A stretch of 58,664 nucleotides of DNA from Parcubacteria group bacterium (lineage in GTDB: Bacteria; Patescibacteriota; Minisyncoccia; UBA6257; UBA11618), in NCBI GenBank assembly GCA_943349395.1, contig CALQZH010000002.1, positions 25,745 through 84,408 of the forward strand, in the 5' to 3' direction. Every line of letters begins with the position of its first letter. Positions within the stretch are counted from its first letter, which is position 1. A program made the position numbers and the translations under genes. Positions 614-50,400 of this stretch are shown piece by piece. Under the pieces are notes generated by a model. It was not told the origin of the DNA and did no database searches. It saw only the letters and a list, made by a program, of their open reading frames with translations.

Positions 614-630
614 CCGATTCGATTCCCGTC
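614..630 (+). repeat. T-arm-like remnant (CCGATTCGATTCCCGTC), resembling the 3' end of the tRNA-convergent elements
   Basis: It has the same GATTCGATTCC... + perfect hairpin layout as the element 3' ends at 14381-14400, 35465-35486 and 30309-30330(-). It matches the tRNA-Ala T-loop/T-stem CGATTCTCGCT at 8 of 11 positions. Confidence 0.35.
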
Positions 631-641
631 TTATCCTACGC

Positions 642-681
642 ACAAACAAAGAACGCTCCCGTGGGAGCGTTCTTTGTTTGT
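642..681. terminator. perfect 19-bp hairpin (acaaacaaagaacgctccc-gtg-gggagcgttctttgtttgt)
   Basis: Read directly from the sequence. It has the same A/T-flanked GC-core design as the hairpins that follow tRNA-Ser, Ile, Leu and Gly. No clean T-run follows on either strand. Confidence 0.5.
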
Positions 682-1000
682 GGACTGCGTACGCATCCAG
701 TGGAACCAGATTATCCAAGAATTACGGCAGTGGCAACAGCTTAATCTCGACGTAAAGCTTGCTTTAGCTGTTTAAATAATCGCCCTACTACCCCGCTCAC
801 TATATTTTTCCTAGACCTATTGGAACCAACTAATAACTAAAAATTTGAAAGTGGGGGAAAATATCGTCGTTATCGTTTCTCCATATTTCCATAACGGAAA
901 AATAAAATATCGGAAGTTATAAGAAATCTTCGTTGCGTTGTGGTTTCCGTTTTAGTTTTTATGTTATGATTGAGTTATATGTTATTATGATCATAATTTT

Positions 1001-3061: not shown

Positions 3062-3072
3062 TTCCTACAAAT

Positions 3073-4611: not shown

Positions 4612-4616
4612 TTAAT

Positions 4617-5192
4617 ATGGGTATGATCCTTACAATTAAACTTCCAAAAGATTTTGAGAAGCGTTATTTGGAATATAAAGCGAAGCTATCAGATAGTTTT
4701 CAAGAGGATGAATTTACGGATCATAAATTTTCTAAAAAATTACCTCGTGGAATACGATGGAATCAATTCATCATAGAATTTTTAGATGATGAAAATGTAT
4801 CAATTACTATTAGAGAGCATAAGAAGCAAAAAGCTAGTTTTATTGATATGAATTTTGAAGATAAGCGTAATGGTAAACCCAATCAACAGTGGTATTTATT
4901 AAAGAAGTTAGCTGATTATGAGGGGGAAATTGATTGGGATACAGCAGGGGCAAATAAAAAGCTTAAAAAATCTATCGGACTCCTTGCCGATGCTTTAAGG
5001 GATTATTTTAGTATGGATAGCGACCCATTTTATCCGTACGAAGAAATTTCTAAGATGAAAAATAAGAGATCTTATAAAACTCGATTTATTATTTTTTGTA
5101 GTCAAGATTATTTAGCTAATCATACCATTCAAAAAAATAACGATAACCTTAAACAAGAAATAGAAGACATATTTAGGGATAATACTTTTTAA
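4617..5192 (+). CDS. hypothetical protein (island)
   Basis: 191-aa ORF starting 5 nt after the previous stop. The terminator at 5210-5233 follows. No motif recognised. Confidence 0.55.
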   Translation: MGMILTIKLPKDFEKRYLEYKAKLSDSFQEDEFTDHKFSKKLPRGIRWNQFIIEFLDDENVSITIREHKKQKASFIDMNFEDKRNGKPNQQWYLLKKLADYEGEIDWDTAGANKKLKKSIGLLADALRDYFSMDSDPFYPYEEISKMKNKRSYKTRFIIFCSQDYLANHTIQKNNDNLKQEIEDIFRDNTF

Positions 5193-5209
5193 AGCATTTT
5201 GTCAGAAAT

Positions 5210-5233
5210 AACCGCCAATAATGGCGGTTTTTG
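5210..5233 (+). terminator. intrinsic terminator
   Basis: AACCGCC-aataat-GGCGGTT followed by TTTGT. Confidence 0.6.
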
Positions 5234-5289
5234 TATTGGTGAATTTTCACCGCTATTTTTTTCAGGGCGGTGATTTTTCGCCATTAAGC

Positions 5290-5565
5290 ATGAAAGCCAT
5301 GCAAGTAAAGAATGAAATTTTAAAAACTTCTGACTTTGAAAGGATATCTGACTTAGATTTAGTAGTTGTTGCCTCACTCTCATTTTCTATAGAGGCGATC
5401 GATCGCGACCCAAAGGAATATCCTCGGGTCGTTTTCCTGTTCAAAAAGACGCCGGAATTGGAAGTTCTTATCCAAGCGTATTGGAACGGCCAGCTTTCGT
5501 GCGAGCCGCAGGCGTTATTCGGTCAGCTCCGGCGGATAAAGTCGAGAATTTACAACAATCAATGA
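5290..5565 (+). CDS. DUF5659-like protein
   Basis: SDLDLVVVASLSFSIEAIDRDPKEYPRVVFLFKKTPELEVLIQAYWNGQLSCEPQALFGQLRRIKSRIY fits the DUF5659 pattern seen in phage and mobile-element proteins. I take the ATG at 5290 inside the longer track ORF. Confidence 0.55.
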   Translation: MKAMQVKNEILKTSDFERISDLDLVVVASLSFSIEAIDRDPKEYPRVVFLFKKTPELEVLIQAYWNGQLSCEPQALFGQLRRIKSRIYNNQ

Positions 5566-5577
5566 AGGATATTTATC

Positions 5578-5727
5578 ATGCTTACGATCGAGCGCGTACG
5601 ACAATTACTGAACGATCCGGCCATTACGGACGAGACGGCGGAAGATATCCGCGACGGATTCCGCGCGCTCATCGAAGACATAATTTTCCCCGCATGGCTC
5701 GAAACAAATAAACACAAACATGAATAA
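5578..5727 (+). CDS. small hypothetical protein (49 aa), translationally coupled
   Basis: MLTIERVRQLLNDPAITDETAEDIRDGFRALIEDIIFPAWLETNKHKHE. It is below the track's size cutoff. Its stop overlaps the next start (ATGAATAA). Confidence 0.4.
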   Translation: MLTIERVRQLLNDPAITDETAEDIRDGFRALIEDIIFPAWLETNKHKHE

Positions 5728-5917
5728 CAAATCATTCGCCGAAGATATTGAGTTCTTGGAGCTTTTGCGCGGGGCTTTGCGTATTGCATATGGTATGGAT
5801 TTTTCAATTAAACAGATACAAGAAGCGCATCTCATTGCCGAGCTTACCGCCGCCATTTTTCAGGATTCCTTGGATAAGATCTATAAGAAAAAATACGGCG
5901 GCCAAACATCAATATGA
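5720..5917 (+). CDS. small hypothetical protein (65 aa)
   Basis: Its start overlaps the upstream stop, and its stop overlaps the PrimPol start (ATGA). Confidence 0.5.
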   Translation: MNNKSFAEDIEFLELLRGALRIAYGMDFSIKQIQEAHLIAELTAAIFQDSLDKIYKKKYGGQTSI

Positions 5918-8187
5918 ATATCCAAGATTTAAAAACGAATCTCGACTGGGCCTTATATTACCGCAGCATCGGTTGGAGTCCTATTCCCGTTAAGCTACGG
6001 GACAAGACGGCCCTTGTCCCATGGAAGCAATACCAGACCGAGATCGCGAGCGAGGAGCAGATACGGGAATGGTGGACAAAGTACCCCGATGCCAATATCG
6101 GAATCGTTACGGGCAAAGTGTCCGGCATTGCGGTGGTCGATATCGAAAAGGGGGGCGATACGAAGGGCTTGCTGCCGACTGTCATGGCCAATACCGGCGG
6201 CGGTGGCTTCCATTTCTTTTACAAGTATCCGAACGCGGGCATTCAAAATGCAGTGAGGATTCGAGAGAAAACCGACATACGGGGCGACAGGGGTTATGCG
6301 GTCGTTGCCCCGTCAGTGCATAAATCCGGCAAGCGTTACTCATGGGCGGTCGCCCCCGAAGAAGCCACGCTCGCGGAATTCCCGCAGTGGATTCTTAAGC
6401 AGGCTACTGATCATCATAAGGAAAAAACCGATTGGAATGCGTTTTTAGGAACCCAAAATTTGGAGGGTACGAGACACCAACAGGCGACCATGCTCGTTGG
6501 CAAGCTTTTGCATGAAATATCGAGCGATATGTGGGATGCCGTCGGTTTGCCGGCATTGCATGCTTGGAATGGTTCTAAAAATATCCCGCCGCTTCCGGAT
6601 AAGGAACTTATGACGATATGGGAGGATATAAAGAAAGCCGAGTTTGAGCGTAGGGTGCGTGATGAAGAAAGCCCCTCAAGACGGACTCCAAATAATCAGG
6701 CAGTAAGGCTTATAAACCTCATTAAAAAGCAAGAGAAAATAGTTTTCTTTCATAATGATCTTAAAGAACCATTCGTGCAGATAATGGTTGGAGGGCATAT
6801 AGAAATATTGTCATGCAAGGATAGGATGCTGAAGCGATGGCTTGCTAGGATTTTTTGGAATGCATATAAAGACGTTCTTAATAACGAATCATTAAAGACG
6901 GCGATTAATATTATAGAAAGCGAGGCCTGCTTTGATGCGGATCAGCATATTCTATATAACCGTGTTGCGGAACATGACGGGGCTATATGGTATGACCTTG
7001 CAGATCCGGCGTGGCGAGCTGTGAAAATAACACCAGACGGATGGAATGTAGTTACTGATGTTCCGATATTATTCCGGCGGTATCCGCATCAGCAAGCACA
7101 AATAGAGCCAACACAGGGTGGTGATGTAAAAGAATTTTTAAAGCTCGTAAATATCCAAGACGAAGACCATAAGATAGTATTGCTCGTCTGGATCGTATCT
7201 TGTTTTATCCCAGATTTTCCGCACCCCATACCGAACTTTTATGGAGCGCAGGGATCGGCTAAGTCGTTTCTATCCAAGTTTTTACGAAAGCTGATAGATC
7301 CGTCTCGTATTGAGGCGATGAGTTTCCCTAAGGATACGAACGAGCTTGCGCAGGTATTATTCCATCATCATTGCGTTTTCTTTGACAATGTTTCTCATTT
7401 GCCGGATCAGGTGTCCGACGCGCTTTGTAAGGCGGTGACCGGTGATGGATTATCAAGGCGTACGTTATATACCGACGAGGAAGACACGATCTTTTCTTTT
7501 CAGCGATGCCTCGGTATTAATGGCATTAATATTGCGGCCAAGAATCCCGACTTGCTCGAAAGGAGCATTCTTTTTGAGTTGCAGCGAGTGCCACCGAGCC
7601 AAAGAAGGCAGGAGGGTGAGCTATTGGAATGCTTTGAAAATGAACGTCCTAGGATCATGGGGAGTATTTTTGATGCGGTGGCGAAAGCCATGCGCATTAA
7701 GCCTTCCGTGAAGATTAATAATCTTCCGCGCATGGCGGATTTTACCGTATGGGGGTGCGCCATTGCCGAAGCGCTTGGTTATACGCAGGGGCAGTTTCTC
7801 GACGCTTACTATAGGAACATCAAACATCAGAATGCGGAGGTTTTATATGATAGCCCGTTAGCCTGCGCTGTACTTGGTTTTATGGAGACGGTGAATATAT
7901 GGGAAGGCACACCGACGGAATTACTTCAGGAGCTTACGAACGTTGCGCAGGGGCAAAATATTGATTTGGCGCAGGAAAAAGATTTCCCCAAGAAGGCAAA
8001 CGTATTAACTCGCATGTTAAACAAGCTGAAAACTAATTTGGCTAACGAGGGAATAGAATTTAAAAACAGCGCCGAACAAAGAGGGCGAAGAGCATATCTT
8101 CGCAAGATAACGGAAGACGCGGCATCTATTCAGGAGCCACTAAAGGAGCATGAAAACGATGATAACGGTATTTTACCCCTACTTTAG
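5914..8187 (+). CDS. bifunctional primase-polymerase (PrimPol) fused to a P-loop helicase-like domain
   Basis: PrimPol motifs are present: GWSPIPV, ANIGIVTGKVSGIAVVDIE, GGGFHFFYKYP, DIRGDRGYAVVAPSVHKSGKRYSW. The C-terminal half has Walker A (YGAQGSAKS) and a Walker-B-like HHCVFFDNV. Confidence 0.85.
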   Translation: MNIQDLKTNLDWALYYRSIGWSPIPVKLRDKTALVPWKQYQTEIASEEQIREWWTKYPDANIGIVTGKVSGIAVVDIEKGGDTKGLLPTVMANTGGGGFHFFYKYPNAGIQNAVRIREKTDIRGDRGYAVVAPSVHKSGKRYSWAVAPEEATLAEFPQWILKQATDHHKEKTDWNAFLGTQNLEGTRHQQATMLVGKLLHEISSDMWDAVGLPALHAWNGSKNIPPLPDKELMTIWEDIKKAEFERRVRDEESPSRRTPNNQAVRLINLIKKQEKIVFFHNDLKEPFVQIMVGGHIEILSCKDRMLKRWLARIFWNAYKDVLNNESLKTAINIIESEACFDADQHILYNRVAEHDGAIWYDLADPAWRAVKITPDGWNVVTDVPILFRRYPHQQAQIEPTQGGDVKEFLKLVNIQDEDHKIVLLVWIVSCFIPDFPHPIPNFYGAQGSAKSFLSKFLRKLIDPSRIEAMSFPKDTNELAQVLFHHHCVFFDNVSHLPDQVSDALCKAVTGDGLSRRTLYTDEEDTIFSFQRCLGINGINIAAKNPDLLERSILFELQRVPPSQRRQEGELLECFENERPRIMGSIFDAVAKAMRIKPSVKINNLPRMADFTVWGCAIAEALGYTQGQFLDAYYRNIKHQNAEVLYDSPLACAVLGFMETVNIWEGTPTELLQELTNVAQGQNIDLAQEKDFPKKANVLTRMLNKLKTNLANEGIEFKNSAEQRGRRAYLRKITEDAASIQEPLKEHENDDNGILPLL

Positions 8188-8256
8188 GATTATGGACTTG
8201 CATGGTATTATAAAAGCGTTGATCCATAGTCTTAGCGAAACGCCCGAGATTTTTTG

Positions 8257-8298
8257 TTGCATCGCCACCCCAAAGGGGCGGCTATGCCGACGATGCAA
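8257..8298. promoter_or_regulatory. nested palindrome upstream of the recombinase gene
   Basis: TTGCATCG ... CGATGCAA (8257-8264 / 8291-8298) encloses the hairpin GCCaCCCCaaaGGGGcGGC (8264-8282). It lies about 55 nt upstream of the recombinase ATG. Confidence 0.35.
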
Positions 8299-8352
8299 TC
8301 CCTCGGGAATGCGGACTTGGATCAACCTTAGCCGTCCCTTTGGGGTTTTATT

Positions 8353-9903
8353 ATGAAAGGAATTATATACACCAGAGTCTCGAGCGAGGAACAGATTAAG
8401 GGGACTTCGCTCGACGATCAAGAGGCGCGTTGCCGCAAATATTGTGACGATAGCGGCATTGATGTCCTTAAGGTATTCAGGGAAGAAGGCGCGTCGGCAA
8501 AGACCATTGACCGGAAGATATTGCTTGAAGCGATGGAATTCTGCCGGAAGAACAAGGGGAAGATTGGTGCTTTTATTGTATGGAAAGTGGATCGGTTTGC
8601 CCGTAATACGGAAGACCATTTTGCGGTACGCAAAATCCTTACGGACTACGGCGTTACCTTGCGCTCCGTAACGGAACCGATCGGCGATAATCCTGCGGAA
8701 AAGCTCTTTGAAACGATACTTGCCGGCTTCGCCCAGTTCGATAACGCCATCCGCAAGCAACGATGCTCTAATGGCATGCTGGCCCGTTTGCGGCAGGGCA
8801 TTTACCCATGGAAGCCGCCGATCGGCTACGTTGCCCTCGGAGCGAAGAAACGCGGGGAGAAGAAAACGGGGCCGGATCCGATCCACGAAGAGATATTTCC
8901 TATTTTGCAAAAAGGATTGCGTGCCTATGCGGACGGCGTTTTCACTTCTCAAATTGAATTTGCCAAAGGACTTGATACATGGGGCTTGGCGAAAATCACG
9001 GGCAAGAAAACGACCGCGGTGGTCGCGGGCAGATTACTCGGGTGCTATCTGAATTTCTATGCCGGTATATTCATCGATCCCGAAACGGGCGCGGAGATAC
9101 AGGCGCTGCACAAACCGATGCTTACGCGTGAAGAAATATATAAGATCCGGCTCGTCCGATCCGGCAAGACATGTAATAACTTCCGCAGGAACAAGTTTAA
9201 TCCCAATTTCCCGTTACGCAGGACGGCCATGTGCGCCTGTTGCGGCAAATCCCTTACGGGCAGCACCTCGCGTGGTAATGGCGGGCAGTATCCGTATTAT
9301 CATTGCTCGACTAAGGGATGTTCCATGTTCGGCAAGAGCGTAGCTAAGAAGGATATTGAGGAGAACTTTATCCGGCACTTGCAGCAAATTACGCCAAAGG
9401 ATAAATGGCTCGCGGTATTTACGGAGACGGTATTGGACGTATGGGAAGAAAAGGGCAAAAGCTTCGTGCTTGATGCGGAAGCTTACGAAAAACAGCTTAA
9501 TGCGCTCTTGAAGAAGAAAACCGCCATCCGCGATCTCCTTGAAGACGGCACGTACGACAAGGAAACGGGCAAGGAACGCCTCGCGGAGATTGAGAATCAG
9601 GTTATGGCTGCGAAGATATCCCTGAGCGAAGCGCGGATAGAGCAATTCGACATAGAGGGAGCGTTGTCGTACGCGACGAATTTCATAAAAGATCTCGGCA
9701 GGCAGTGGTTTGATCTACCAGCACAGCTCCGTCCGCGGTTTCAAAGATTGGTATTTCCGGCAGGGTTGCCCTATTCGCGTACTTCCGGATTTGGAACCGC
9801 GCAATTAGGGCTTATTTACGAGATAAATCGAACGTCTGAGGGTGATTTATCTCACGTGGTGGACCCAGCGAGAATCGAACTCGCGTCTCCTCATTGCAAA
9901 TGA
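8353..9903 (+). CDS. large serine recombinase (integrase)
   Basis: Resolvase catalytic N-terminus (GIIYTRVSSEEQIKGTSLDDQ), recombinase domain, Zn-ribbon (CACCGKSLTG...YYHCSTKGC) and a coiled-coil region. The last ~15 codons (VVDPARIELASPHCK) are the antisense of tRNA-Ala. Confidence 0.9.
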   Translation: MKGIIYTRVSSEEQIKGTSLDDQEARCRKYCDDSGIDVLKVFREEGASAKTIDRKILLEAMEFCRKNKGKIGAFIVWKVDRFARNTEDHFAVRKILTDYGVTLRSVTEPIGDNPAEKLFETILAGFAQFDNAIRKQRCSNGMLARLRQGIYPWKPPIGYVALGAKKRGEKKTGPDPIHEEIFPILQKGLRAYADGVFTSQIEFAKGLDTWGLAKITGKKTTAVVAGRLLGCYLNFYAGIFIDPETGAEIQALHKPMLTREEIYKIRLVRSGKTCNNFRRNKFNPNFPLRRTAMCACCGKSLTGSTSRGNGGQYPYYHCSTKGCSMFGKSVAKKDIEENFIRHLQQITPKDKWLAVFTETVLDVWEEKGKSFVLDAEAYEKQLNALLKKKTAIRDLLEDGTYDKETGKERLAEIENQVMAAKISLSEARIEQFDIEGALSYATNFIKDLGRQWFDLPAQLRPRFQRLVFPAGLPYSRTSGFGTAQLGLIYEINRTSEGDLSHVVDPARIELASPHCK

Positions 9904-9930
9904 GGTGTTCTGCCATTTAACTACGGGCCC
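9857..9930 (-). tRNA. tRNA-Ala (anticodon UGC), CCA encoded
   Basis: The cloverleaf was folded by hand. Anticodon arm CCTCA-TTTGCAA-TGAGG gives UGC. G3:U70 and A73 are Ala identity elements. T-arm GCGAG-TTCGATT-CTCGC. Confidence 0.9.
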
Positions 9931-13159: not shown

Positions 13160-13438
13160 ATGCCGTTCCATCTGGCGGGCGCGGGCATCGCTCTCGCGCT
13201 CATCATCGAAGCCGCGACGCTCATGTGCCGTATGGGCTTTCGTCTGCGGAGCGCAGAAATCCAGCGTCGCCTGCACGTGCCGCGTATCCACCATTCGTAT
13301 ATAGGCGTCTTTTTGCTCGCGCTCGGTCTCATCGCGCCGCACGAGTGGCTCTTCGTGCTCGGTATCGCGTTCGTCCTGTCGGACGCCGTTCACCACGCGC
13401 TCATGGTGCCGATGATAGGGGGCGGGAGAAAGGGGTAG
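13160..13438 (+). CDS. small membrane protein (possible anti-sigma remnant partner)
   Basis: 92 aa with three hydrophobic spans. AAGAGG lies upstream of the ATG. The position downstream of the sigma fragment is the only functional hint. Confidence 0.45.
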   Translation: MPFHLAGAGIALALIIEAATLMCRMGFRLRSAEIQRRLHVPRIHHSYIGVFLLALGLIAPHEWLFVLGIAFVLSDAVHHALMVPMIGGGRKG

Positions 13439-13440
13439 AT

Positions 13441-13456
13441 GGAAGGATTCGCCTCT
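13441..13456. repeat. 16-bp direct repeat GGAAGGATTCGCCTCT (copy 1)
   Basis: Identical to 14273-14288. GGAAGGATTCG is the reverse complement of the tRNA-Ser T-loop/T-stem. Confidence 0.8.
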
Positions 13457-14272
13457 TGCCCCGCTCTATTTTTTATCTGCTCGCTTTTGCCTCTTAGCGA
13501 GATTTGATATTAAATTAGCATATATGAAAAATTCCCAAAAAGGATCGGGGATTGTTATATCGATAGTGATAATCGCGCTGTTAGTGATTGCAGGGGGCAT
13601 ATATCGCTATTCGCAACGAGATAAAGCTCAAGTGATTGAAGATGCTATCAGCATCGATTCTGATACGAGACAGCTCTTAGGCCCTGAACAGTATAAATAT
13701 AAAGAAGGGAGCAATTCATATCTTGATCTCTCCGCAGAAATTTCGAAATCAGGCGGTCTGAATCTGAAACAGCCGACCACATTCGTTACCTACGAGAATA
13801 AAGACAGGGGAATAGAGTTCTCTGTTCCTTATAATCCTGCATGGGGTTCCGCAAAATACAAAATCGCACCGTACGAATATGAAAAGGGCCTAGTTACTGA
13901 TAAAGGCGCTGATGATGAAAAAATAATCTTCGGTCCAATTCAGCCATGGGAAGGAGGTGGCTTGGCTCGTTTGCAATCCCTATCTTTCATACCTGCGCGC
14001 ACCGCCGACTCCCTTATGGAAAATACTCTTGCTGTTGTGAAAACAGAAAAGAAGAGAATTAATGGATTGGAGGTGGTAGAATTTTCCGGAGGCGAGTTTT
14101 GTGGCTATTCCTATATAGAAATTATTGGGGAAAAATACAACTATATCCTCTCTGATGGTTGTGATAATTCATATAACGCACCCGACAATCCGTCTCCTAT
14201 CGATATGAGATATTTGGAAGGATTAGTCGAAAAAATGAAATTGATCTAAGAAGGGCAAGGTCGGCCATGGTA
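13457..14272 (+). mobile_element. single-gene AT-rich cassette bracketed by the 16-bp direct repeats
   Basis: The composition is clearly lower in GC than the flanks. It holds exactly one ORF and has identical 16-mers at both ends. Confidence 0.45.
13524..14249 (+). CDS. membrane-anchored hypothetical protein (cassette gene)
   Basis: 241 aa with an N-terminal anchor (GIVISIVIIALLVIAGGIY). AT-rich codon usage unlike the neighbours. Confidence 0.7.
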   Translation: MKNSQKGSGIVISIVIIALLVIAGGIYRYSQRDKAQVIEDAISIDSDTRQLLGPEQYKYKEGSNSYLDLSAEISKSGGLNLKQPTTFVTYENKDRGIEFSVPYNPAWGSAKYKIAPYEYEKGLVTDKGADDEKIIFGPIQPWEGGGLARLQSLSFIPARTADSLMENTLAVVKTEKKRINGLEVVEFSGGEFCGYSYIEIIGEKYNYILSDGCDNSYNAPDNPSPIDMRYLEGLVEKMKLI

Positions 14273-14400
14273 GGAAGGATTCGCCTCTCCCTCTCCGCCA
14301 TTCGCCGCCTGGCGGAGGCGGATCGGTCGAGGTCGCTGTTTTCATAGTCGGCGGAACGCCTTCTTGAAAACAGGGGACCTACGGTTCGAATCCTTCTTCG
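14273..14400 (+). repeat. tRNA-convergent structured element, copy a (partner: tRNA-Ser)
   Basis: The 5' GAAGGATTCG pairs with the 3' CGAATCCTTC. The core is CGGTCGAGGTCGCTGTTTTCATAGTCGGCGGAACGCCTTCTTGAAAACAGGGGACCTACGGTTCGAATCC. It is shared with copies c and d2. Confidence 0.65.
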
Positions 14401-14409
14401 GCTCTCATC

Positions 14410-14453
14410 TAATACAAAGAGGGATGGTTCTAGAACCATCCCTCTTTGTATTA
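14410..14453. terminator. bidirectional hairpin between element a and tRNA-Ser
   Basis: taatacaaagagggatggttc/tagaaccatccctctttgtatta, a perfect palindrome ending 2 nt from the tRNA 3' end. Confidence 0.65.
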
Positions 14454-14455
14454 GG

Positions 14456-14542
14456 CGGAAGCGGAAGGATTCGAACCTTCGATACCGTTTCCGGTATACT
14501 GCATTTCGAGTGCAGCCCATTCAACCGCTCTGGCACGCTTCC
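14456..14542 (-). tRNA. tRNA-Ser (anticodon CGA), long variable arm, no encoded CCA
   Basis: Acceptor GGAAGCG/CGCTTCC. Anticodon arm CTGCA-CTCGAAA-TGCAG. Variable arm TATACCGGAAACGGTATC. T-arm GAAGG-TTCGAAT-CCTTC. Confidence 0.9.
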
Positions 14543-14565: not shown

Positions 14566-15384
14566 ATGCTTCTAATGGCAAGAATTATCGCCGTGTGCAA
14601 TCAGAAGGGCGGGGTTGGTAAAACCACCACCGCCGTGAATGCGGCATGCTATCTCGCGCTCTATGGACGGCGCGTCCTGCTCGTCGATTTCGACCCGCAG
14701 GCGAATGCCACATCGGGCTTCGGCTCGTCTTCGCGGGCCGACGGGGGAGCGAATATTTACGAGGCGATCGCGGGGAGGAAGAATATCCACGAGATCGTGC
14801 GCACGACGGCGATTCCGGGGTGCCACTTCATCTCCGCGCATCCCTCGCTCGCGGGGGCGACGATCGAGCTTCTCGACAAGCCCGATCGCGAGAAATTCCT
14901 CAAGAAGGCGCTCGCGCAGGTCGCGCACCATTACGACTACGTGCTGATAGACCTGCCGCCCTCGGTAAGCCTGCTCACCATAAACGGCTTGATGGCCGCG
15001 GACGAGGTGTTGATTCCGGTGCAGTGCGAGTACTATGGCCTCGAGGGCTTGAGCCAGATATTGGAGACCGTCGACCTCGTGAATCATAACCTCGGGCACA
15101 ATCTCACGGTCGCGGGCGCCCTGCTCACCATGTACGACAGCAGGGAGCATCTCTCTCGCGAGGTTTCGAAGTCGCTCCGCAGGCATTTCACGGGCCATGT
15201 GTATGCGGTCGAGATCCCGCGCGCGGTCGCCTTGGCCGAGGCGCCGAGCTTCGGCAAGCCGGTATGCTTCCACGACCCGCACGGTCCCGGTGCGCGCGCC
15301 TACGAGCGGCTCGCGAAGGAAATCATAGGCCAAGAAAGCGCGAAAAATCAGAAATCAGAAATCAGAAATCCGAATTATGTATAA
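14566..15384 (+). CDS. parA: chromosome partitioning ATPase ParA/Soj
   Basis: Deviant Walker A (NQKGGVGKTTTAVN) and ParA-family body. The C-terminal tail KNQKSEIRNPNYV is encoded by a 7-nt x3 repeat. Confidence 0.9.
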   Translation: MLLMARIIAVCNQKGGVGKTTTAVNAACYLALYGRRVLLVDFDPQANATSGFGSSSRADGGANIYEAIAGRKNIHEIVRTTAIPGCHFISAHPSLAGATIELLDKPDREKFLKKALAQVAHHYDYVLIDLPPSVSLLTINGLMAADEVLIPVQCEYYGLEGLSQILETVDLVNHNLGHNLTVAGALLTMYDSREHLSREVSKSLRRHFTGHVYAVEIPRAVALAEAPSFGKPVCFHDPHGPGARAYERLAKEIIGQESAKNQKSEIRNPNYV

Positions 15385-21615: not shown

Positions 21616-21805
21616 CCTATCGATAGTGCTCGGGGTCGCGGCCGTGTTCTTGGGCGCGGGACTGCTTTTCTGCATATATAGGGGGATACGCTTTGGGGTA
21701 AGCACGGTGCGGGCCGGATATGCGGAAAATTTGATAAACCGGGAAGAAATTGCTAGTTTTAACCTTGCTGGCGCCGCGGAGCTGAAGAAGCTGCGGGGCA
21801 GATAG
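21593..21805 (+). CDS. small membrane protein
   Basis: 70 aa with one TM segment (LSIVLGVAAVFLGAGLLFCIY). It overlaps the upstream gene's end. Confidence 0.45.
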   Translation: MERLLRNNLSIVLGVAAVFLGAGLLFCIYRGIRFGVSTVRAGYAENLINREEIASFNLAGAAELKKLRGR

Positions 21806-21824
21806 GAGGGGGGTCGGGCGCGAC

Positions 21825-21896
21825 GGGCGCATAGTTCAGTGGTAGAACGCCATACTGATAATATGGAGGTCGAAGGTTCGATTCCTTCTGCGCCCA
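21825..21896 (+). tRNA. tRNA-Ile (anticodon GAU)
   Basis: Acceptor GGGCGCA/TGCGCCC. Anticodon arm CCATA-CTGATAA-TATGG. T-arm GAAGG-TTCGATT-CCTTC. Confidence 0.9.
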
Positions 21897-21900
21897 CACA

Positions 21901-21943
21901 GTTTTAAAATAGGACCCGTTATACTCGGGTCCTATTTTAAAAC
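21901..21943. terminator. bidirectional hairpin after tRNA-Ile
   Basis: gttttaaaataggacccg-ttatac-tcgggtcctattttaaaac. Confidence 0.65.
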
Positions 21944-21949
21944 TGTCTA

Positions 21950-22123
21950 GGTACATAGAGGAGGAATCGAACCGCGGGCCGCAGGCTCCGAATAGGAGCC
22001 GAAGGTTCCGAGCCGCATAGGCGGCGAGGGGCGATTCCTTCTTCATTGCTGATTATAAAAATGACATGTCTCGACCGATCTACTAGTGAGTAGAGAGGAA
22101 GAGGCGATTCCTTCTGCGCCCAC
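21950..22123 (-). repeat. tRNA-convergent structured element, copy b (two tandem units; partner: tRNA-Ile)
   Basis: The far end carries a 19-bp direct repeat of the tRNA-Ile 3' end (22105-22123 = 21879-21897). An inner partial repeat lies at 22032-22042. The 40-nt block 21970-22009 is identical to 35339-35378 in reverse complement. Confidence 0.65.
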
Positions 22124-22162: not shown

Positions 22163-22438
22163 ATGGAAGACGTAGTGAAAAAAACAGTGAATGTGTCTAC
22201 GTGCATGGGTTCATTCGAATGCGTTTTGACGCATAATGATCCTGATAAGGGATATACGGTTACGGTTCCCAGATTGAAAGGGGTGGTGACATTCGGAGAT
22301 GATGAGAGAGAGGCTGTGCGTATGGTTCGGGAGGCCATAGAATTGCATTGCGGATGTCTTTTGGAAAAAGGCCTTGCCGAGGTTCGTCCGAAGCGCAAAG
22401 AAGCGGTACGGGGAAAAAGCATTGCAGTTCGCAAGTAG
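22163..22438 (+). CDS. hicB: HicB-family antitoxin
   Basis: GYTVTVPRLKGVVTFGDDEREAVRMVREAIELH matches the HicB/UPF0150 N-terminal fold pattern. It lies directly upstream of hicA. Confidence 0.7.
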   Translation: MEDVVKKTVNVSTCMGSFECVLTHNDPDKGYTVTVPRLKGVVTFGDDEREAVRMVREAIELHCGCLLEKGLAEVRPKRKEAVRGKSIAVRK

Positions 22439-22441
22439 CGT

Positions 22442-22672
22442 ATGGGCATAGCGATTACCGGAGCCAGGCTGATTCCTTTGCTGGTGAAGCTCTGTTTCCG
22501 GATAATTCGACAGGCGGGAAGCCATGTCCATTTGGAATCGGTCGGGAATATGGCGCGCAGGGTAACCGTGCCGATGCATAACAAGGATCTTCCTATCGCT
22601 ACGTTGCGGTCCATCCTGCGCCAAGCGGGGATATCGATGGAGGATTTTTTGAAATTACTCGGCAGGAAATAA
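22442..22672 (+). CDS. hicA: HicA-family mRNA interferase toxin
   Basis: IRQAGSHVHLES...RVTVPMHNKDLPIATLRSILRQAGIS is the HicA signature (GSH...vP.H...l..gtl.sIlkqag). Confidence 0.75.
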   Translation: MGIAITGARLIPLLVKLCFRIIRQAGSHVHLESVGNMARRVTVPMHNKDLPIATLRSILRQAGISMEDFLKLLGRK

Positions 22673-22681
22673 TTTTTTACA

Positions 22682-23005: not shown

Positions 23006-23077
23006 AGAAGATGGCGAGGGTTACCCTCTCGCTGTTTTTGTATGGATATATGCGGGCATGAATATAAACAAAAATTA

Positions 23078-23168
23078 ACAATTGTATAAAATTGTTTATA
23101 TTGCATATCGTCACGAAAACGGGGTATTGTATGCGGCAGAAGTCGACGACGTTCGTTGACAATCAGTT
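23078..23168 (+). promoter_or_regulatory. duplicated palindrome + promoter + 5' stem-loop module (copy 1)
   Basis: ACAATTGTATAAAATTGT palindrome (23078-23095). -35 TTGCAT (23101), 18-nt spacer, -10 TATTGT (23125). GTCGAC-gacgttc-GTTGAC stem-loop (23142-23160). Near-identical copy at 24505-24594. Confidence 0.55.
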
Positions 23169-23266
23169 TCCATGGCCGGTGCCTGCGGGCGTTCGGACCA
23201 TGGCCCGGGCCGTGCGCGGTACCGGTGTCGTGCGCCTGCGGGCGCTTTGTTTTGGGGAGATGTACG

Positions 23267-24421
23267 ATGAGTTCGAGTCAGAGGGAAAGATTGCTCGTGG
23301 CTATGAGTCAGAACGGGACAAGGGATGCGGAAGGCGATGCTGTGCTCGCGGCGGCGATGGCCGAAAGGCTCTTCAGGAAGCTTTCGCAGAGCGGCGAGGT
23401 TTTGGAATTGCGAGAGATATTCACGGATGCGATGGAGAGCTATAACGACGTGCTCGGCGTTCAGGCCGTGAACCGTTGGGCGCTGTCGTATGCGGCATCG
23501 AATGCCGAAGGTCAGATCGACGCGGGCATGTTCGCATGCCTCACCGTTATGTTCTGGGAGGCTCATGCCAAATACCGGGGCGGGGCGTACCCGATGGGTA
23601 AGACGCTGCTCGCCGTGTTCGGGCAGATTCTCGCCCTGTGGCGTCCGAATATGTCTGAGACGAGCATTGCCGCGTTCGAATTCTGCGCGGCGGCATCCGA
23701 TCCGATGAGCGGGCAGGAGTACGAAGGGTGGACGAGCGCCATGCGCCTGTTCAGGGGTAAGTTCGTCCATAAGGAGGATCGCGCGGCGATGGTCGGGATG
23801 ATCCGCGACAAGGCGAATAAGAAAGGGCGTCCGTGCGAGGATTTCGATAGCGATAGCCTTGGGGAGTGGATTGACCGCTATGCGGATACCGTTCATTTCT
23901 CGAAAGAAATCCTCGACGATCTCGAAGTTGCGTATACGCGTAAGGCGTGCGTGCGCACGGAGAAGATGCGCAGGCAGGTATGCAGGCATCTCCTCGTGGT
24001 GGATGCGTCGTCGGCATTACGCGCGTTTCTCGGAGAAACCGTGGTGAAGCAATGGGCGAAGTTCGACAAGCGGGCGATGAGCGCGCTTTCGGGAATGTGG
24101 CCGCGCGGCCATGAGGGCGAGATGGCTCGGGACGGGATCGGGCTGTGGAATAACTTCTACGGAACGATTCTCGTGATCTATCATGCGCGCCTACGCGTGC
24201 AAGTCGATGTTGTTCTTCCCGAGGGAACCCCGACGAATCTGTGTTCAGATATGACGCGCCGGGCCGAGGCACGGGTTGAGCGATTTCGTGACTTGAATAA
24301 GGACGCTTCGATTCTGATCCGGGTCTTCGATTCGGGAAAAAATCTCATCTGCGCGCCGAATTGGGGAAGCGAATCGTTCGATGATATTCCGTGCGGCGTC
24401 GCGGAGGCGGATGGGGAGTAA
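23267..24421 (+). CDS. orphan protein, paralog 1 (384 aa)
   Basis: ATG at 23267 after GGGGAGA. The C-terminal motifs DGIGLWNNFYGTI, LPEGTPTNL and RRAEARVERF are shared with the next gene. No known domain recognised. Confidence 0.65.
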   Translation: MSSSQRERLLVAMSQNGTRDAEGDAVLAAAMAERLFRKLSQSGEVLELREIFTDAMESYNDVLGVQAVNRWALSYAASNAEGQIDAGMFACLTVMFWEAHAKYRGGAYPMGKTLLAVFGQILALWRPNMSETSIAAFEFCAAASDPMSGQEYEGWTSAMRLFRGKFVHKEDRAAMVGMIRDKANKKGRPCEDFDSDSLGEWIDRYADTVHFSKEILDDLEVAYTRKACVRTEKMRRQVCRHLLVVDASSALRAFLGETVVKQWAKFDKRAMSALSGMWPRGHEGEMARDGIGLWNNFYGTILVIYHARLRVQVDVVLPEGTPTNLCSDMTRRAEARVERFRDLNKDASILIRVFDSGKNLICAPNWGSESFDDIPCGVAEADGE

Positions 24422-24504
24422 TTCGATCGGGTGTTTTTTGCGGCGGGGGTTTCGCCCCCGTCGCTTTTTTATGAGCGCATGTATGCGAATATCAACAATT
24501 AAAT

Positions 24505-24594
24505 ACAATTGTATAAAATTGTTTATATTGCGCATTTCCTCATAACGGGGTATTTTAGGCGCAGGGTCGACGACGTTCGTTGGCATAATCAGTT
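24505..24594 (+). promoter_or_regulatory. duplicated palindrome + promoter + 5' stem-loop module (copy 2)
   Basis: The same 18-bp palindrome (24505-24522). -35 TTGCGC (24528), 17-nt spacer, -10 TATTTT (24551). GTCGAC-gacgttc-GTTGGC stem-loop (24566-24584). Confidence 0.55.
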
Positions 24595-24682
24595 CTCCGG
24601 GCCGGCTTTCGGGCAGGGTTCTGGGGCTTCCCCGTTTCGGCGGGCGAAGGAAGGTGCGGTTTCGGCCGCGGGAGAGAGAACC

Positions 24683-25867
24683 ATGACAGAGGCAGAGAGA
24701 AAAGCGCAGTTTTTTCCGCACTCGATGCGTTCGGGATACGGCGGGCAATTGCCCGCATCGGCGCATGCGCTGAATTACATCTTGTCGGGGGGAACCGTGG
24801 CGGAGAATGTGGCGAAGCTCACGGGGTTCCTGTGCGAGGCAATGAAGTTCCGCCACGAGGAGGCGATGCTCGAGGGGTTCGAGTGGCTATGCAAGGCATG
24901 GGAGCGGTTCGACGCTCACGTTGAGATGCGCGCTGCTCAGGGGATCAGCCACGAGGCATTTGGAGGAATTTCAGAGACTCCCATAGGAGTGTCGGCGGGA
25001 GATGTGTCTCCTGCGTGGACCGTGGAGCAGTTCAGGATGAACCAGCTCGATCGCCTGATCGACCTCTATGCGCTGACTCCGAGCATGGAATCTTGCATCA
25101 TGCTGAAGGTTGCGATCATCCAGAAGGCGGTACGTGAATTCCTTGTCCAGGAGCGTACGGAGATCGCCCGGAAGGCGTTCTCGTTCTTTCTCGCGATGGG
25201 ATATATGACGCGCAAAGGGTACAGGTTCGACCATCCGTACTCCGACGTGCGGGAGAGACTGACTGACAGATGCGTGACGAAAGCCGAGCGTGACGCGCTC
25301 GAGAACGCGGTCCGGGAGGGAATGGGTTCGTGGAAGTTGGAAGATATCGAGGCGTGGTACGTGGAATGGAGCGGCTTCCGGTTCATCCATGCCGATCTGC
25401 TGAATGTGTTCGGCGTCGTGTGGGGAAGGAAAGGCGGGGTGGCGCTTATGGATGGGAGTCTTGCCGACAGGGCGCTTCTCGCACGGTTCGACCGCATGAA
25501 ACGATCCCCGGTCGCGATCGATCTTTTCAGGCAGATGTCGGATACCATTGCCGATTTCGATATCCGGATCGCGTCGCTCGTGGAGCGGATGACGCCCGAT
25601 AGCCGTAAAAACGGATGGCGGGACGATGGTATCGGGCAGTGCGAGGAGCTTTATGGCACGATCCAAGTCGGTTCCGAAAAGATCGGGGAGCTCGTGATCG
25701 CGTTGAAACTGCCGGAAGGCTTTCCGGATGCGTTGGGCAGGGATGTCGCGCGCCGCGCGCGCCAGCATGTCGAGCAGTGGAAAGAGGGTAATGGGCAGGG
25801 GATCGTCGTTTTCCTCACGACGATGCTCCACGACGGCTCGGGTGCCGTGAATAGCACGTTCAGATAG
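24683..25867 (+). CDS. orphan protein, paralog 2 (394 aa)
   Basis: ATG at 24683 after GGGAGAGAGAA. DDGIGQCEELYGTI, LPEGFPDAL and RRARQHVEQW parallel paralog 1. Confidence 0.65.
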   Translation: MTEAERKAQFFPHSMRSGYGGQLPASAHALNYILSGGTVAENVAKLTGFLCEAMKFRHEEAMLEGFEWLCKAWERFDAHVEMRAAQGISHEAFGGISETPIGVSAGDVSPAWTVEQFRMNQLDRLIDLYALTPSMESCIMLKVAIIQKAVREFLVQERTEIARKAFSFFLAMGYMTRKGYRFDHPYSDVRERLTDRCVTKAERDALENAVREGMGSWKLEDIEAWYVEWSGFRFIHADLLNVFGVVWGRKGGVALMDGSLADRALLARFDRMKRSPVAIDLFRQMSDTIADFDIRIASLVERMTPDSRKNGWRDDGIGQCEELYGTIQVGSEKIGELVIALKLPEGFPDALGRDVARRARQHVEQWKEGNGQGIVVFLTTMLHDGSGAVNSTFR

Positions 25868-30188: not shown

Positions 30189-30269
30189 GCCCAGGTGGCG
30201 AAATGGCAGACGCACTACCTTGAGGTGGTAGCGCCGCAAGGCATGGAGGTTCGAGTCCTCTCCTGGGCA
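30189..30269 (+). tRNA. tRNA-Leu (anticodon GAG)
   Basis: Acceptor GCCCAGG/CCTGGGC. Anticodon arm CTACC-TTGAGGT-GGTAG. 13-nt variable arm. T-arm GGAGG-TTCGAGT-CCTCT. Confidence 0.9.
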
Positions 30270-30270
30270 C

Positions 30271-30306
30271 AAATATAAAGACCCCTTTCAAGGGGTCTTT
30301 ATATTT
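30271..30306. terminator. bidirectional hairpin after tRNA-Leu
   Basis: aaatataaagacccctt/aaggggtctttatattt palindrome, starting 1 nt after the tRNA. Confidence 0.65.
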
Positions 30307-30308
30307 GT

Positions 30309-30482
30309 GCCTTGCGTGAGAGGAATCGAACCGGATAGGTTCCCTGTTTGTTCAAGAGCGAAGCGATTGACGCACAAACAGCAATGCCGCACCGTAGTGC
30401 GGCCCCCCAAGTTTTCAAGAAGGCCTCGGGCCGACTATGAAAACAGCGACTTCGACCGGAGGGAGAAGCGAGTCCTCTCCTG
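30309..30482 (-). repeat. tRNA-convergent structured element, copy c (partner: tRNA-Leu)
   Basis: A 14-bp direct repeat of the tRNA-Leu 3' end (30469-30482 = 30252-30265). The end-pairing is GAGAGGAATCG (30318-30328) with CGAGTCCTCTC (30469-30479). It has the same core as copies a and d2 plus a second hairpin, CTGTTTGT...ACAAACAG. Confidence 0.65.
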
Positions 30483-34761: not shown

Positions 34762-35184
34762 TCAATAGATTTTCCCCGCGCGCCAGTTATCGATGACGTT
34801 CTTGCTGTGGGGAAAGATAGGCGAGGGGAGGCGGTCAAGGTCATACCACTGCCAGTTTTTCGATTTACCAGGCTCGGCGTCATATGGCTCGCCCGCGCGC
34901 GATTCAGCCAAGAGTCCGATCGAGACGTAATGCATGCCGTAGGCGATATCGTTGCCTAGGGAGACGACACCTCGTATCTCGATATCGGCGAGACCGGCCT
35001 CTTCTTCCACTTCCCGCTTGGCGGCCTCCTCGAAGCTCTCGCCGAATTCCAAATGCCCGCCGGGAATCTGGTATGTGCTTGCTCCGTGGCCTGCCAGCCG
35101 TTCTCCGAGGAGTATTTTCCCATCGCGGATGACTATGATGCCGACACCGACTTTGGGGCGCTCGGGAGGATTCGAATCGTTCAT
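34762..35184 (-). CDS. NUDIX hydrolase
   Basis: Nudix box GGHLEFGESFEEAAKREVEEEAGL. The first 8 codons are encoded by a T-arm-like sequence (CGATTCGAATCCTCCC). Confidence 0.85.
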   Translation of the reverse strand: MNDSNPPERPKVGVGIIVIRDGKILLGERLAGHGASTYQIPGGHLEFGESFEEAAKREVEEEAGLADIEIRGVVSLGNDIAYGMHYVSIGLLAESRAGEPYDAEPGKSKNWQWYDLDRLPSPIFPHSKNVIDNWRAGKIY

Positions 35185-35215
35185 GGGGAGAGTATGCCAT
35201 GGAAAAATGGGTAGA

Positions 35216-35486
35216 GGGAGTCGCCCCTCGCCGCCTCAGGGTAAAAGAAATAGATCGTCGTCATCGCTTCGCTCCTTTCCGACGTGATTTTAAAATTCAA
35301 ACCTCTTCGCTTCGCATATCGGGATAATTTTAAAATCAGGAACCTTCGGCTCCTATTCGGAGCCTGCGGCCCGCGGTTAATGACAGGGGGAGTCGCTTCT
35401 CCCTTCGGTCGAAGTCGCTGTTTTCATAATCGCCCCGCGAGCCTCCTTGAAAATAGGGAGCCTTCGGTTCGACTCCCGCCCGCTTC
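35216..35486 (+). repeat. tRNA-convergent structured element, copy d (units d1 35216-35384 and d2 35385-35486; partner: tRNA-Gly)
   Basis: d2: AGGGGGAGTCG (35385-35395) repeats 35536-35546 of the tRNA-Gly locus. GGGAGTCG pairs with CGACTCCC (35470-35477). The core is shared with copies a and c. d1 shares TCGCCCCTCGCCGCCT and a 40-nt block with copy b. Confidence 0.65.
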
Positions 35487-35527
35487 AAATAATAAAAGCC
35501 GCTCACGAAGAGCGGCTTTTATTATTT
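35487..35527. terminator. bidirectional hairpin between element d and tRNA-Gly
   Basis: aaataataaaagccgctc-acgaa-gagcggcttttattattt. Confidence 0.7.
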
Positions 35528-35528
35528 G

Positions 35529-35600
35529 AGCGGGTAGGGGGAGTCGAACCCCCATTGACAGGTTGGAAACCTGTCGTATTAGCCGTTATACGATACCCGC
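35529..35600 (-). tRNA. tRNA-Gly (anticodon UCC)
   Basis: Acceptor GCGGGTA/TACCCGC. Anticodon arm ACAGG-TTTCCAA-CCTGT. T-arm GGGGG-TTCGACT-CCCCC. Confidence 0.9.
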
Positions 35601-35631
35601 TTTATGAGGAGATGATATAGTAAAACCGACA

Positions 35632-50335: not shown

Positions 50336-50400
50336 GGGAATCGCCGCCCCATTGCATGGGGCGAGCCTCGCCTCGATACGATCGAGGCGGGAACCTTAGG
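50336..50400 (+). repeat. reduced tRNA-convergent element, copy e (partner: tRNA-Pro)
   Basis: It starts GGGAATCG|CCGCCCC. GGAATCG is the reverse complement of the tRNA-Pro T-loop/stem. Hairpins GCCCC-attgcat-GGGGC and CGCCTCGAT-acg-ATCGAGGCG are present. It ends GGGAACCTTAGG, like the other copies. Confidence 0.4.

Follow-up and report, generated by a model that had tools for sequence, protein, structure and literature searches.

Cis-mobilisable elements (CIMEs) carry no integrase, the direct repeats at their borders take in the 3' end of the targeted tRNA gene, and they accrete as newcomers integrate at a resident att site, which gives tandem arrays and gene capture (PMC5704250). The integrases of integrons act on a folded single strand, which they recombine with double-stranded DNA (PMC4792948), and in CTXphi two inverted Xer sites fold in single-stranded DNA into a stem that mimics the target, one strand pair being exchanged (PMC3442271). 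The modules described here, which we call K, share traits with each of these systems and lie tail-to-tail with tRNA genes in a 58,664-nucleotide stretch (the window) of contig CALQZH010000002.1 from a Parcubacteria group bacterium. The K family looks previously undescribed, rather than a set of ordinary small-RNA genes or dead scars, and we favour, at an even chance of being right, the view that K modules are non-autonomous DNA cassettes for which the T-loop sequence of tRNA genes is the site of recombination, by a recombinase acting in trans. Two of the readings offered earlier from the letters of this DNA alone (the sequence-only reading), miniature integrative elements and recombination sites, therefore fit best, because the direct copies of the tRNA 3' end start at a fixed point of the T-loop, and K has a young copy, stacks and nests, is missing from orthologous sites in relatives and has a gene between two junction repeats; the idea of att scars, put forward together with the first of these, does not hold for the core. 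The core is no scar, as its covarying fold is kept at 57-59% DprA identity and one unit is 100% identical in two species.

The window encodes housekeeping genes typical of Patescibacteria (DprA, TopA, ParAB, DnaG, a short AlaRS and DUF4012); its nearest DprA homologues are in metagenome-assembled genomes (MAGs), and remoter ones carry the labels Paceibacterota, Liptonbacteria or Minisyncoccia. ARAGORN and an Rfam search, which both returned only tRNAs, re-found the seven tRNA genes at the positions already assigned to them. As had been described, elements are convergent to those for tRNA-Ser (14273-14400, +), tRNA-Ile (21950-22123, -), tRNA-Leu (30309-30482, -) and tRNA-Gly (35216-35486, +), the sole separator of element and tRNA at all four loci being a palindromic, A/T-flanked GC hairpin. 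Read on the tRNA strand, each locus has the order tRNA, palindromic terminator, inverted T-loop and T-stem, K in reverse complement, and a direct copy of the tRNA 3' end. The inverted copy right after the terminator hairpin reads GGAnTCGAACC, the T-loop backwards, at all four, and the non-coding stretch beyond it spans 90-270 nt per locus, a single K module taking up about 90-160 nt. No conserved open reading frame (ORF) and no integration or transfer gene lies in the units of the four window loci, which upholds the earlier negative on conserved frames. A covariance model of the core (R1), run over both strands of the window with filters off, was significant only at Ser, Ile, Leu and Gly. Two K sequence types occur in the window, type 1 (units b1 and d1) and type 2 (copies a, c and d2); the shared core already noticed is real (repeats of 53-70 nt, 81-87% identical), as is the identical 40-nt block at 21970-22009 and 35339-35378. 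The features of the four loci are as follows.

14273..14400 (+): K type 2, copy a, at tRNA-Ser (R1 96.8 bits; single-sequence fold a four-way junction, z = -5.3)
14273-14283: 5' arm of copy a, reverse complement of tRNA-Ser C56-C66
14383-14393: 3' side of copy a, GGTTCGAATCC
14409..14454 (unstranded): palindromic terminator hairpin, an inverted repeat, common to tRNA-Ser (14454-14542, -) and copy a
21898..21946 (unstranded): palindromic terminator, an inverted repeat, after tRNA-Ile (21825-21897, +)
21960..22047 (-): K type 1, unit b1, at tRNA-Ile (R1 32.9 bits, E 6e-6)
21960-21973: inverted T-loop of b1, GGAGGAATCGAACC
22032-22042: 5' arm of b1, complement of CGATTCCTTCT
22043-22047 (-): junction motif of b1, AATGA
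22048..22104 (-): b2, degenerate 5' half of an older type-2 unit (weak R1 match, 14.4 bits)
22105..22123 (+): far direct copy of the tRNA-Ile 3' end, CGATTCCTTCTGCGCCCAC, from C56 through the discriminator plus one base
30266..30311 (unstranded): extended palindrome and terminator after tRNA-Leu (30189-30270, +)
30318..30482 (-): K type 2, copy c, at tRNA-Leu (R1 75.9 bits), its long hairpin duplicated internally
30318-30332: inverted T-loop of copy c
30469-30482: far direct copy of the tRNA-Leu 3' end, CGAGTCCTCTCCTG
35209..35384 (+): K type 1, unit d1, at tRNA-Gly, interrupted by a type-3 module
35209-35223: 5' arm of d1, reverse complement of CGACTCCCTCTACCC
35237..35338 (-): type-3 module inside d1, an unrelated two-hairpin unit, tRNA-oriented (model R2 94.6 bits)
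35376-35379: GGTT, at which the 3' end of d1 halts; AATGACA links d1 to d2
35385..35486 (+): K type 2, unit d2, at tRNA-Gly (R1 85.7 bits; folded as a single sequence)
35386-35395: 5' arm of d2, reverse complement of CGACTCCCCC
35466-35476: 3' side of d2, GGTTCGACTCC
35487..35527 (unstranded): palindromic terminator common to d2 and tRNA-Gly (35528-35600, -)

Relatives were reached via DprA, and their 10-kb DprA flanks are syntenic with the window. By locus, with DprA identity to the window, they show:

L018 (83%): K at Leu and Ile
L020 (67%): truncated K at Ser; Ile and Leu empty
L021-L023 (57%): K at Ile; Leu and Ala empty
L023 (one strain): K adjoining ParA, where tRNA-Ser is expected
L024 (59%): K at Ser only
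L025 (54%): K absent at five tRNAs
L027 (49%): K variant between two tRNA-Leu genes

All K matches (9/9, including a partial one at the contig end of L028) are antisense to a tRNA or tRNA-like 3' end, 29-65 nt away. A comparison of orthologous tRNA loci, one of the checks suggested for these elements, brings out empty sites at Ile and Leu of L020, at Leu and Ala of L021-L023 and at the five tRNAs of L025, and the tRNA flanks of these genomes are hotspots of variable genes. The cores group by genome lineage and not by tRNA: those of window Ser, window Gly and L018 Leu are mutually 81-86% identical and window Leu is 86% identical to window Gly, while window Ser and L024 Ser, which are the same locus, share 72%, and L023 Ser and L024 Ser 91%.

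The consensus fold, derived by aligning three type-2 copies of the window with three of relatives, is a predicted four-way junction closed by a stem, and single-sequence folds reproduce the same junction. Closing stem P1 pairs GGAnTC with GAnTCC over 6-11 bp in all copies, P2 pairs GCCTC-TC-CC with GG-TC-GAGGT, the long hairpin P3 is formed by CTGTTTTCA/TGAAAACAG and the small hairpin P4 by GRRCC-loop-GGTTC; as hardly any junction bases remain unpaired, K would be a compact four-way junction. Pairing cells come to 89% in seven distinct sequences, and 10 pairs are changed on both sides, against 5.3 +/- 1.5 in shuffles (0/500 reach that number) and 1-4 in slid controls, and these changes support the fold. 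Compensatory changes in P3 are seen in L018 (CTATTTTCA/TGAAAATAG), in L021 (GGTTTTTA/TAAAAAC) and between L024 (CCCGTTTTTTC/GGGAAAAACGGG) and L023 (CCCATTTTTTC/GGAAAAAATGGG), P2 shows a C-G to U-A swap, and inspection of the sequence bears out both the G-T wobble reported for d2 and the double change reported for the second hairpin of copy c. R1 is a type-2 model, and its match to type 1 with the score listed for b1 indicates that type 1 has the same architecture. The core of L027 is a different one of four hairpins, with closing stem and flanks as in the other K modules, and two tRNA-Leu genes converge on it.

The 3' GGTTCGAnTCC does not act as a T-loop in the predicted fold, where GGTTC pairs in P4 and GAnTCC in P1, and K failed the test for a tRNA or tmRNA cloverleaf with canonical T-arm, this GGTTCGAnTCC being without a T-stem partner. 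Derivation of K from an inverted tRNA paralogue was likewise rejected, as the Ser, Gly and L018 Leu cores are 81-86% alike although their tRNAs are unrelated. Whether the stem pairs solely on the strand opposite the tRNA, as asserted earlier, is left undecided by folding energies and z-scores, which are equal on both strands; on the strand opposite the tRNA, G-U pairs stand against A-C mismatches at 23:9 and P4 forms only there, but prediction of the structure on that very strand biases the count. No Rfam family matches K: Rfam 15 at gathering threshold returned tRNA genes alone in the window and six related loci, and a permissive search of 35150-35620 gave only sub-threshold hairpin noise.

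The identical runs reported between elements and their neighbouring tRNAs (CGAATCCTTCC, CGATTCCTTCTGCGCCCAC, CGAGTCCTCTCCTG and CGACTCCCCCT) are correct and longer than chance would give. Copies of tRNA ends were scored as the longest exact match to the last 26 nt of the tRNA within 450 nt up- and downstream of 34 tRNAs from seven genomes, and the longest upstream copy, direct or inverted, is at most 8 nt (the control). Downstream, direct copies of 10-19 nt occur at 11 tRNA loci in 6 genomes (11-19 nt in the window) and inverted copies of 9-24 nt at nine loci, the convergent tRNA-Leu gene of L027 not being counted. The direct copy begins at C56 of the T-loop (between TT and CGA) in 7/11 loci and 2-5 nt further 3' in the other 4/11. 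The inverted copy of the tRNA-Ile 3' end is perfect over 23-24 nt in L021, and an inverted copy of 18 nt occurs in L024. Where CCA is not encoded, the far copies hold the trailer bases of the gene in its place (CAC / CTC at Ile, CAT / CAC at L018 Leu), which argues that they derive from DNA and not from mature tRNA; a primer-binding site taken from mature tRNA is ruled out on the same ground.

The tRNA-Leu locus of L018 suggests which part is the insert. Its far copy, as read from the sequence, is the whole tRNA 3' end (20 nt) and is followed by a second terminator, a stretch that is deleted in the window. Compared with the terminator of the empty L021 site, this far terminator matches at 30/32 aligned bases and the near one at 27/35; near and far agree at 28/34, while the adjoining 20-nt tRNA-end copy is perfect. 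A promoter-like TATATTGAC downstream adjoins the far copy in the window; at the empty L020 site it adjoins the tRNA directly. The likeness of the terminators and the placement of this motif indicate that the far copy is the displaced native end, and that the near 3' end, the terminator and K together are the insert; K at L018 tRNA-Leu thus has the appearance of a young copy.

The type-1 unit is identical between the window and L018 at 80/80 positions (86/86 including the flanking AATGA), a genome pair in which dprA third codon positions are 64%, the tRNA-Ile terminator 67% and tRNA-Ile itself 97% identical. The same type-1 core stands at both Ile and Gly in the window, its arms matching whichever tRNA is adjacent, and together with the 80/80 identity this points to recent spread across loci and species. 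Units also nest, as the type-3 module does within d1, and stack, d2 being joined exactly behind the GGTT of d1 via AATGACA. Two-unit arrays stand at Ile and Gly; at tRNA-Ile, in both species, a type-1 unit with AATGA in front takes the place of the 3' half of an older type-2 unit, and the L018 orthologue of b2 retains ...GGTCGAAGCCGCTATTTTCATAGTCGG ahead of the type-1 unit.

Upstream of copy a, repeats of the K 5' junction, 21-23 nt long, bracket a gene (region 13434-14288):

13434..13456 (+): upstream copy of the K 5' junction, GGTAG(AT)GGAAGGATTCGCCTCT, direct repeat with 14268-14288
13524..14249 (+): ORF of 241 aa, candidate cargo, between both junction copies; no Pfam family

The 241-aa ORF has an N-terminal hydrophobic segment and 3 homologues among 5.8 billion proteins. 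The homologue at 66% (L028/L029), from another metagenome, is bracketed by a 27-nt repeat, and behind it come a terminator, an inverted T-loop and a partial K; the contigs with the 83% homologue end in sequencing adapter and are uninformative. An origin of copy a by migration from the Gly locus, suggested by the GGTAG before its arm, was dropped, as L024 tRNA-Ser shows the same TCC-TAC; this GGTAG is more simply read as an old, mutated Ser acceptor end.

K consists of a multi-hairpin core and a closing stem of inverted half-sites (5' ..GGAnTCG and GGTT-CGAnTCC.. 3') that copy the 3' half of the T-loop and the T-stem of the neighbouring tRNA. In the mechanism that we propose, a site-specific recombinase encoded elsewhere would swap strands between T55 and C56, and integration would push the native tRNA 3' end to the far side while bringing in a new 3' end and terminator; units would accrete as further ones integrate at the tRNA or at a junction already in place. 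The closing stem, as a duplex copy of the target, would be the cis-acting substrate, possibly in the form of folded single-stranded DNA, and cores could be swapped between landing pads because inverted half-sites bracket them. A wider proposal, which we advance tentatively and hold to be rather improbable, is that K modules are the recombination sites of an undescribed Patescibacteria cassette system docking at tRNA T-loops. In such a system the branched fold, perhaps in single-stranded DNA, would offer duplex T-loop and T-stem to a host or trans-acting recombinase, and cores and occasional genes (the 241-aa ORF) would be traded among tRNA landing pads and species, a single-strand logic that would be integron- or CTXphi-like by analogy, unrelated in sequence and targeted to tRNA.

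Several observations weigh against cassettes that recombine at the T-loop. Among the 40 window ORFs scanned there is no recombinase that could act on K, the only one present being the serine recombinase of a separate prophage-like island, and no tyrosine recombinase; no autonomous parent element was found, and neither an excised form nor strain-level gain or loss was seen. An insert that carries a tRNA 3' end, with near-identical cores and locus-specific terminators, needs an extra step, which we can only postulate as core exchange between landing pads or gene conversion. The far tRNA-Leu copy is identical to the tRNA at 20/20 positions in L018 and 14/14 in the window despite an old split; simple decay does not explain so perfect a copy and neither does pure mobility, and it is the best point for an antisense function. 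The covariation rests on seven sequences, the equal minimum free energies predicted for the two strands would leave the folding strand undecided, and the junction repeats around the ORF have opposite orientation relative to it in the two genomes. The family's breadth is known solely from the DprA-synteny loci, as two large scans for the core gave chance matches only: an exact-pattern scan for the type-2 core returned 3 matches in 185,579 species genomes and 10 in JGI metagenomes, those inspected all being chance. Scans of viral contigs gave one chance match for the core and none for the type-1 hairpin or the type-3 loop, and blastn of copy a and the whole Gly array had no match among 50,697 phage and 72,556 plasmid records.

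The covarying fold also speaks for a different explanation, that K is a small structured RNA gene convergent with the tRNA, sharing a bidirectional terminator with it, antisense at its 5' end to the 3' end of that tRNA and serving as a tRNA-specific regulator, decoy or guide; K would then owe its position to function and not to mobility. Each outermost unit has a terminator behind it in the correct orientation, the G-U pairs of P4 (GRRCC/GGTTC) are valid only on the strand opposite the tRNA, 5' complementarity runs without a mismatch for 14-20 nt at the tRNA-Leu of two species and for 19 nt at tRNA-Ile, and the type-1 unit is 100% conserved across species. We nevertheless consider an RNA gene unlikely. 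A crude sigma-70 consensus scan, which did detect the tRNA-Ser and tRNA-Gly promoters, found no promoter-like site into K at the 4 loci, the inner units of tandem arrays leave no promoter space, and the K 5' ends lie 31-40 nt from the starts of the neighbouring NUDIX and hicB genes, which are on the opposite strand. The family is moreover absent from some relatives, folding energy is equal on both strands, and the second terminator, the duplicated acceptor ends and the gene-flanking repeats would be unnecessary for an RNA gene. The remaining suggestion of the sequence-only reading, an antisense small RNA in the manner of a primer-binding site, thus lacks support, K being promoterless by the scan, its far copies derived from DNA and the family missing from some relatives. 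It is less probable still that the functional strand is that of the tRNA, so that K and type 3 would form part of long tRNA 3' trailers by terminator read-through and influence how the tRNA 3' end is processed or how the following gene is expressed; we place this last among the explanations considered here. The tRNA-strand fold is equally stable, type 3 is co-oriented in 5/5 cases, three of them 0-130 nt upstream of a co-oriented gene, and NUDIX and hicB begin just past the arrays at the distance given above, but a strong terminator stands between tRNA and K, P4 and several other pairs turn into A-C mismatches on the tRNA strand, and the duplicated tRNA ends are left unexplained.

A further explanation is replication template switching at the terminator palindrome and T-loop microhomology, with no dedicated enzyme: a nascent strand would copy a K core elsewhere and make a U-turn on the tRNA 3' flank, producing inverted and direct copies, and quasi-palindrome correction would later keep the arms matched. 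This would account at once for locus-specific arms, terminator and far copy with only the core shared, it would explain the perfect 23-24-nt inverted tRNA-Ile end of L021 and the 18-nt one of L024, and since the tRNA retains its own 3' end a pre-adapted element is unnecessary. We judge it improbable all the same, as the L018 Leu terminators agree at only 28/34 beside a perfect 20-nt copy, unlike the products of simultaneous duplication, precise recurrent insertion with defined ends (AATGA...) at seven tRNA species in six genomes looks enzyme-guided, and the cross-species identity of the 86-nt unit requires a horizontal transfer that template switching does not supply. Partial duplications of tRNA 3' ends are also the classic remnants of att sites, and the units might be passive, decaying and functionless att scars of former larger islands; K-less remnants do exist (the tRNA-Val of L020 and 614-630, both described below), and tRNA flanks are variable-gene hotspots. 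For K this is very improbable: the fold is kept with compensatory changes across relatives of 57-83% DprA identity, 80/80 positions are identical where neutral sites are at 64%, the same core stands at different tRNAs, and no further island debris lies beside the units. The cassette reading is the one that we retain.

Elements had been reported at six of the seven tRNA loci. Four of these are solid (Ser, Ile, Leu and Gly), the remnant assigned to tRNA-Ala is plausible and the tRNA-Pro locus is doubtful. The supposed reduced form at tRNA-Pro (50336-50400, +) consists of two hairpins that have only GGAATCGCC in common with type 1; there is no R1 match there, the similarity score was equalled by 44/500 shuffles, and homology of these hairpins to K is not supported. 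The remnant has an inverted T-loop-like run beside what is apparently the old terminator of tRNA-Ala, which makes it plausible as such, but it has no K core:

614..682 (+): remnant, with inverted T-loop-like run 614-630 and hairpin 640-682, then GTGGAC at 684-689

GTGGAC is the reverse complement of the tRNA-Ala 3' end from 9857 onward, and as the hairpin and GTGGAC follow the T-loop-like run, 614-682 looks like the former downstream flank of tRNA-Ala, which an island of about 9.2 kb appears to have displaced. This prophage- or satellite-like island of low GC (38-50%) occupies window 690-9860 in the 3' end of tRNA-Ala (9857-9930, -), with its far junction at about 684-689 (GTGGAC). It encodes a large serine recombinase (8353-9903, overlapping the tRNA end), a PrimPol (5914-8187), a gp3-like small terminase (3736-4173) and a DUF5659 protein, and the same pair of recombinase and PrimPol stands at the tRNA-Ala of L024. 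The serine recombinase was rejected as the K enzyme, for it is part of this separate island and has its own short crossover, unrelated to K. At tRNA-Val of L020 (7195-7267, -) a 55-nt insert lies downstream, bounded by a 13-nt direct repeat of the tRNA-Val 3' end (CCTTCAGGGCGCA); it holds GGTTCGAC in direct orientation and no K core, and is a different sort of small tRNA-end duplication.

The type-3 module of d1 has further copies of about 100 nt in L018 (8852-8956, -) and L021 (3683-3780, +; 7269-7365, -; 6504-6602, +). It is built of an AT-rich stem around ATCCCGA...GAGGTT and a second hairpin with loop GGAGGGAAACGAAGTGACGA, 9/20 pairs being changed on both sides among four sequences, and has no Rfam match. 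All five copies (5/5) are co-oriented with an upstream tRNA or terminator, and in L021 one lies flush against tRNA-Val and extends to the start codon of rluA. A GC-rich stretch of about 300 nt, apparently non-coding, occupies L021 6200-6500 immediately upstream of a type-3 copy and closes with a terminator hairpin; it could be an unannotated RNA, and Rfam gave no match to it at gathering threshold. The tRNA-Ile 3' flank is a hotspot of variable genes: a hicB antitoxin gene and, by comparison with L018, an apparent hicA (window 22163-22680) start 40 nt past the array, the pair also being present in L018, other small genes in its place in L020, L021 and L025, and none in L024. Strains with identical DprA diverge after parA (L023 6810-6969 against L021 14860-15950): L023 has GCGGGAGGAT.. 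twice in tandem and then a K module, and L021 has genes for dCMP deaminase and NUDIX together with a tRNA-Ser that lacks K and differs in its T-stem. Public assemblies of the window's genome break at the type-1 40-nt block (the ends of L004/L005, at window 35368), and one contig (L006) makes a chimeric join through it, from window 21779-22009 to 35378-34349; type-1 repeats cause misassembly. Two other repeats were seen in the window. A 42-nt AT-rich repeat (23061-23102 and 24488-24529, 81% identical, partly palindromic, AACAATTGTATAAAATTGTT) lies ahead of each of two adjacent ORFs without Pfam family (23156-24421 and 24509-25867) and may be a shared operator or promoter, and the parA-parB junction (15345-15374) holds tandem heptamers, AAATCAG three times and then AAATCCG.

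Patescibacteria (the candidate phyla radiation, CPR) have tiny genomes and few recognised mobile elements, and their gene exchange is poorly understood. If the cassette reading is right, modules of about 100 nt that dock at the universally conserved T-loop of tRNA would be a new and minimal kind of site-specific mobile DNA, a family that spreads among tRNA loci and apparently among species and sometimes brackets a gene. K modules would give a handle on the recombinase and may offer a compact module for tRNA-targeted integration. In practice, K repeats break or mis-join metagenome assemblies and could pass for small-RNA genes; should they be tRNA-specific antisense RNAs instead, the class of regulator would be equally new.

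Short repeats and primer-binding sites are the more distant comparisons. Like miniature inverted-repeat transposable elements (MITEs) and repetitive extragenic palindromes (REP and REPIN), K is short, non-coding, multi-copy and hairpin-forming, has inverted ends, lies in intergenic DNA near terminators and breaks assemblies. Its inverted ends, unlike theirs, vary with the neighbouring tRNA, and it is strictly tRNA-adjacent in fixed orientation; it has no fixed-length target duplication as MITEs do, its direct repeats ranging from 10 to 20 nt, and no parent insertion sequence (IS) or REP-associated tyrosine transposase (RAYT) gene for K was seen. With the primer-binding site of retroviruses and long terminal repeat (LTR) elements it shares a run complementary to a specific tRNA 3' end at the unit's 5' side, of at most 19-20 nt, but the K copies have trailer bases instead of CCA, and the window encodes no reverse transcriptase.

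Integrative mobile elements exploiting Xer (IMEX, the CTXphi type) come closer. The order left behind when the folded single-stranded attP(+) of CTXphi recombines with dif, by our own derivation, would be direct site, body, inverted site, some 90-100 nt, direct site, which is the order seen at K loci, and the K 5' arm is the reverse complement of tRNA C56-C66, repeated by the 3' arm, with pairing over 6-11 bp. There the target is dif and the enzymes are XerCD, whereas the K target is the tRNA T-loop region, the K 'element body' is just a tRNA 3' end and terminator, and single-strandedness is presumed by analogy. Integron attC sites are structured, 60-140 nt long and closed by paired inverted cores, and are arrayed, sometimes with an ORF between them; K resembles them in part, with the 6-11-bp closing stem in all copies, two-unit arrays at Ile and Gly and only one ORF between junction copies. 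The K ends GGAnTCG and GGTTCGAnTCC nevertheless miss RYYYAAC / GTTRRRY (two positions of GTTCGAA do not fit), a tRNA T-loop and not attI is the target, most units have no ORF, the fold is a branched junction rather than a bulged hairpin, and the 40 window ORFs scanned include no intI integrase. With CIMEs, K loci share direct repeats of the tRNA 3' end (11 loci), units free of integration and transfer genes, stacked units and a gene between two junction copies. CIMEs, however, are decayed integrative conjugative or integrative mobilisable elements (ICEs/IMEs) of kilobase size and without conserved structure, whereas K measures about 90-160 nt plus terminator, has a covarying stem-closed fold, an inverted half-site and many tRNA targets, and its parent element has not been seen. 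We would thus place K in a known kind, non-autonomous integrative DNA targeted to tRNA genes; its structure and behaviour are new and its mechanism is one that we infer, the novelty lying in a conserved branched structure acting in cis and in the use of many tRNAs across the family.

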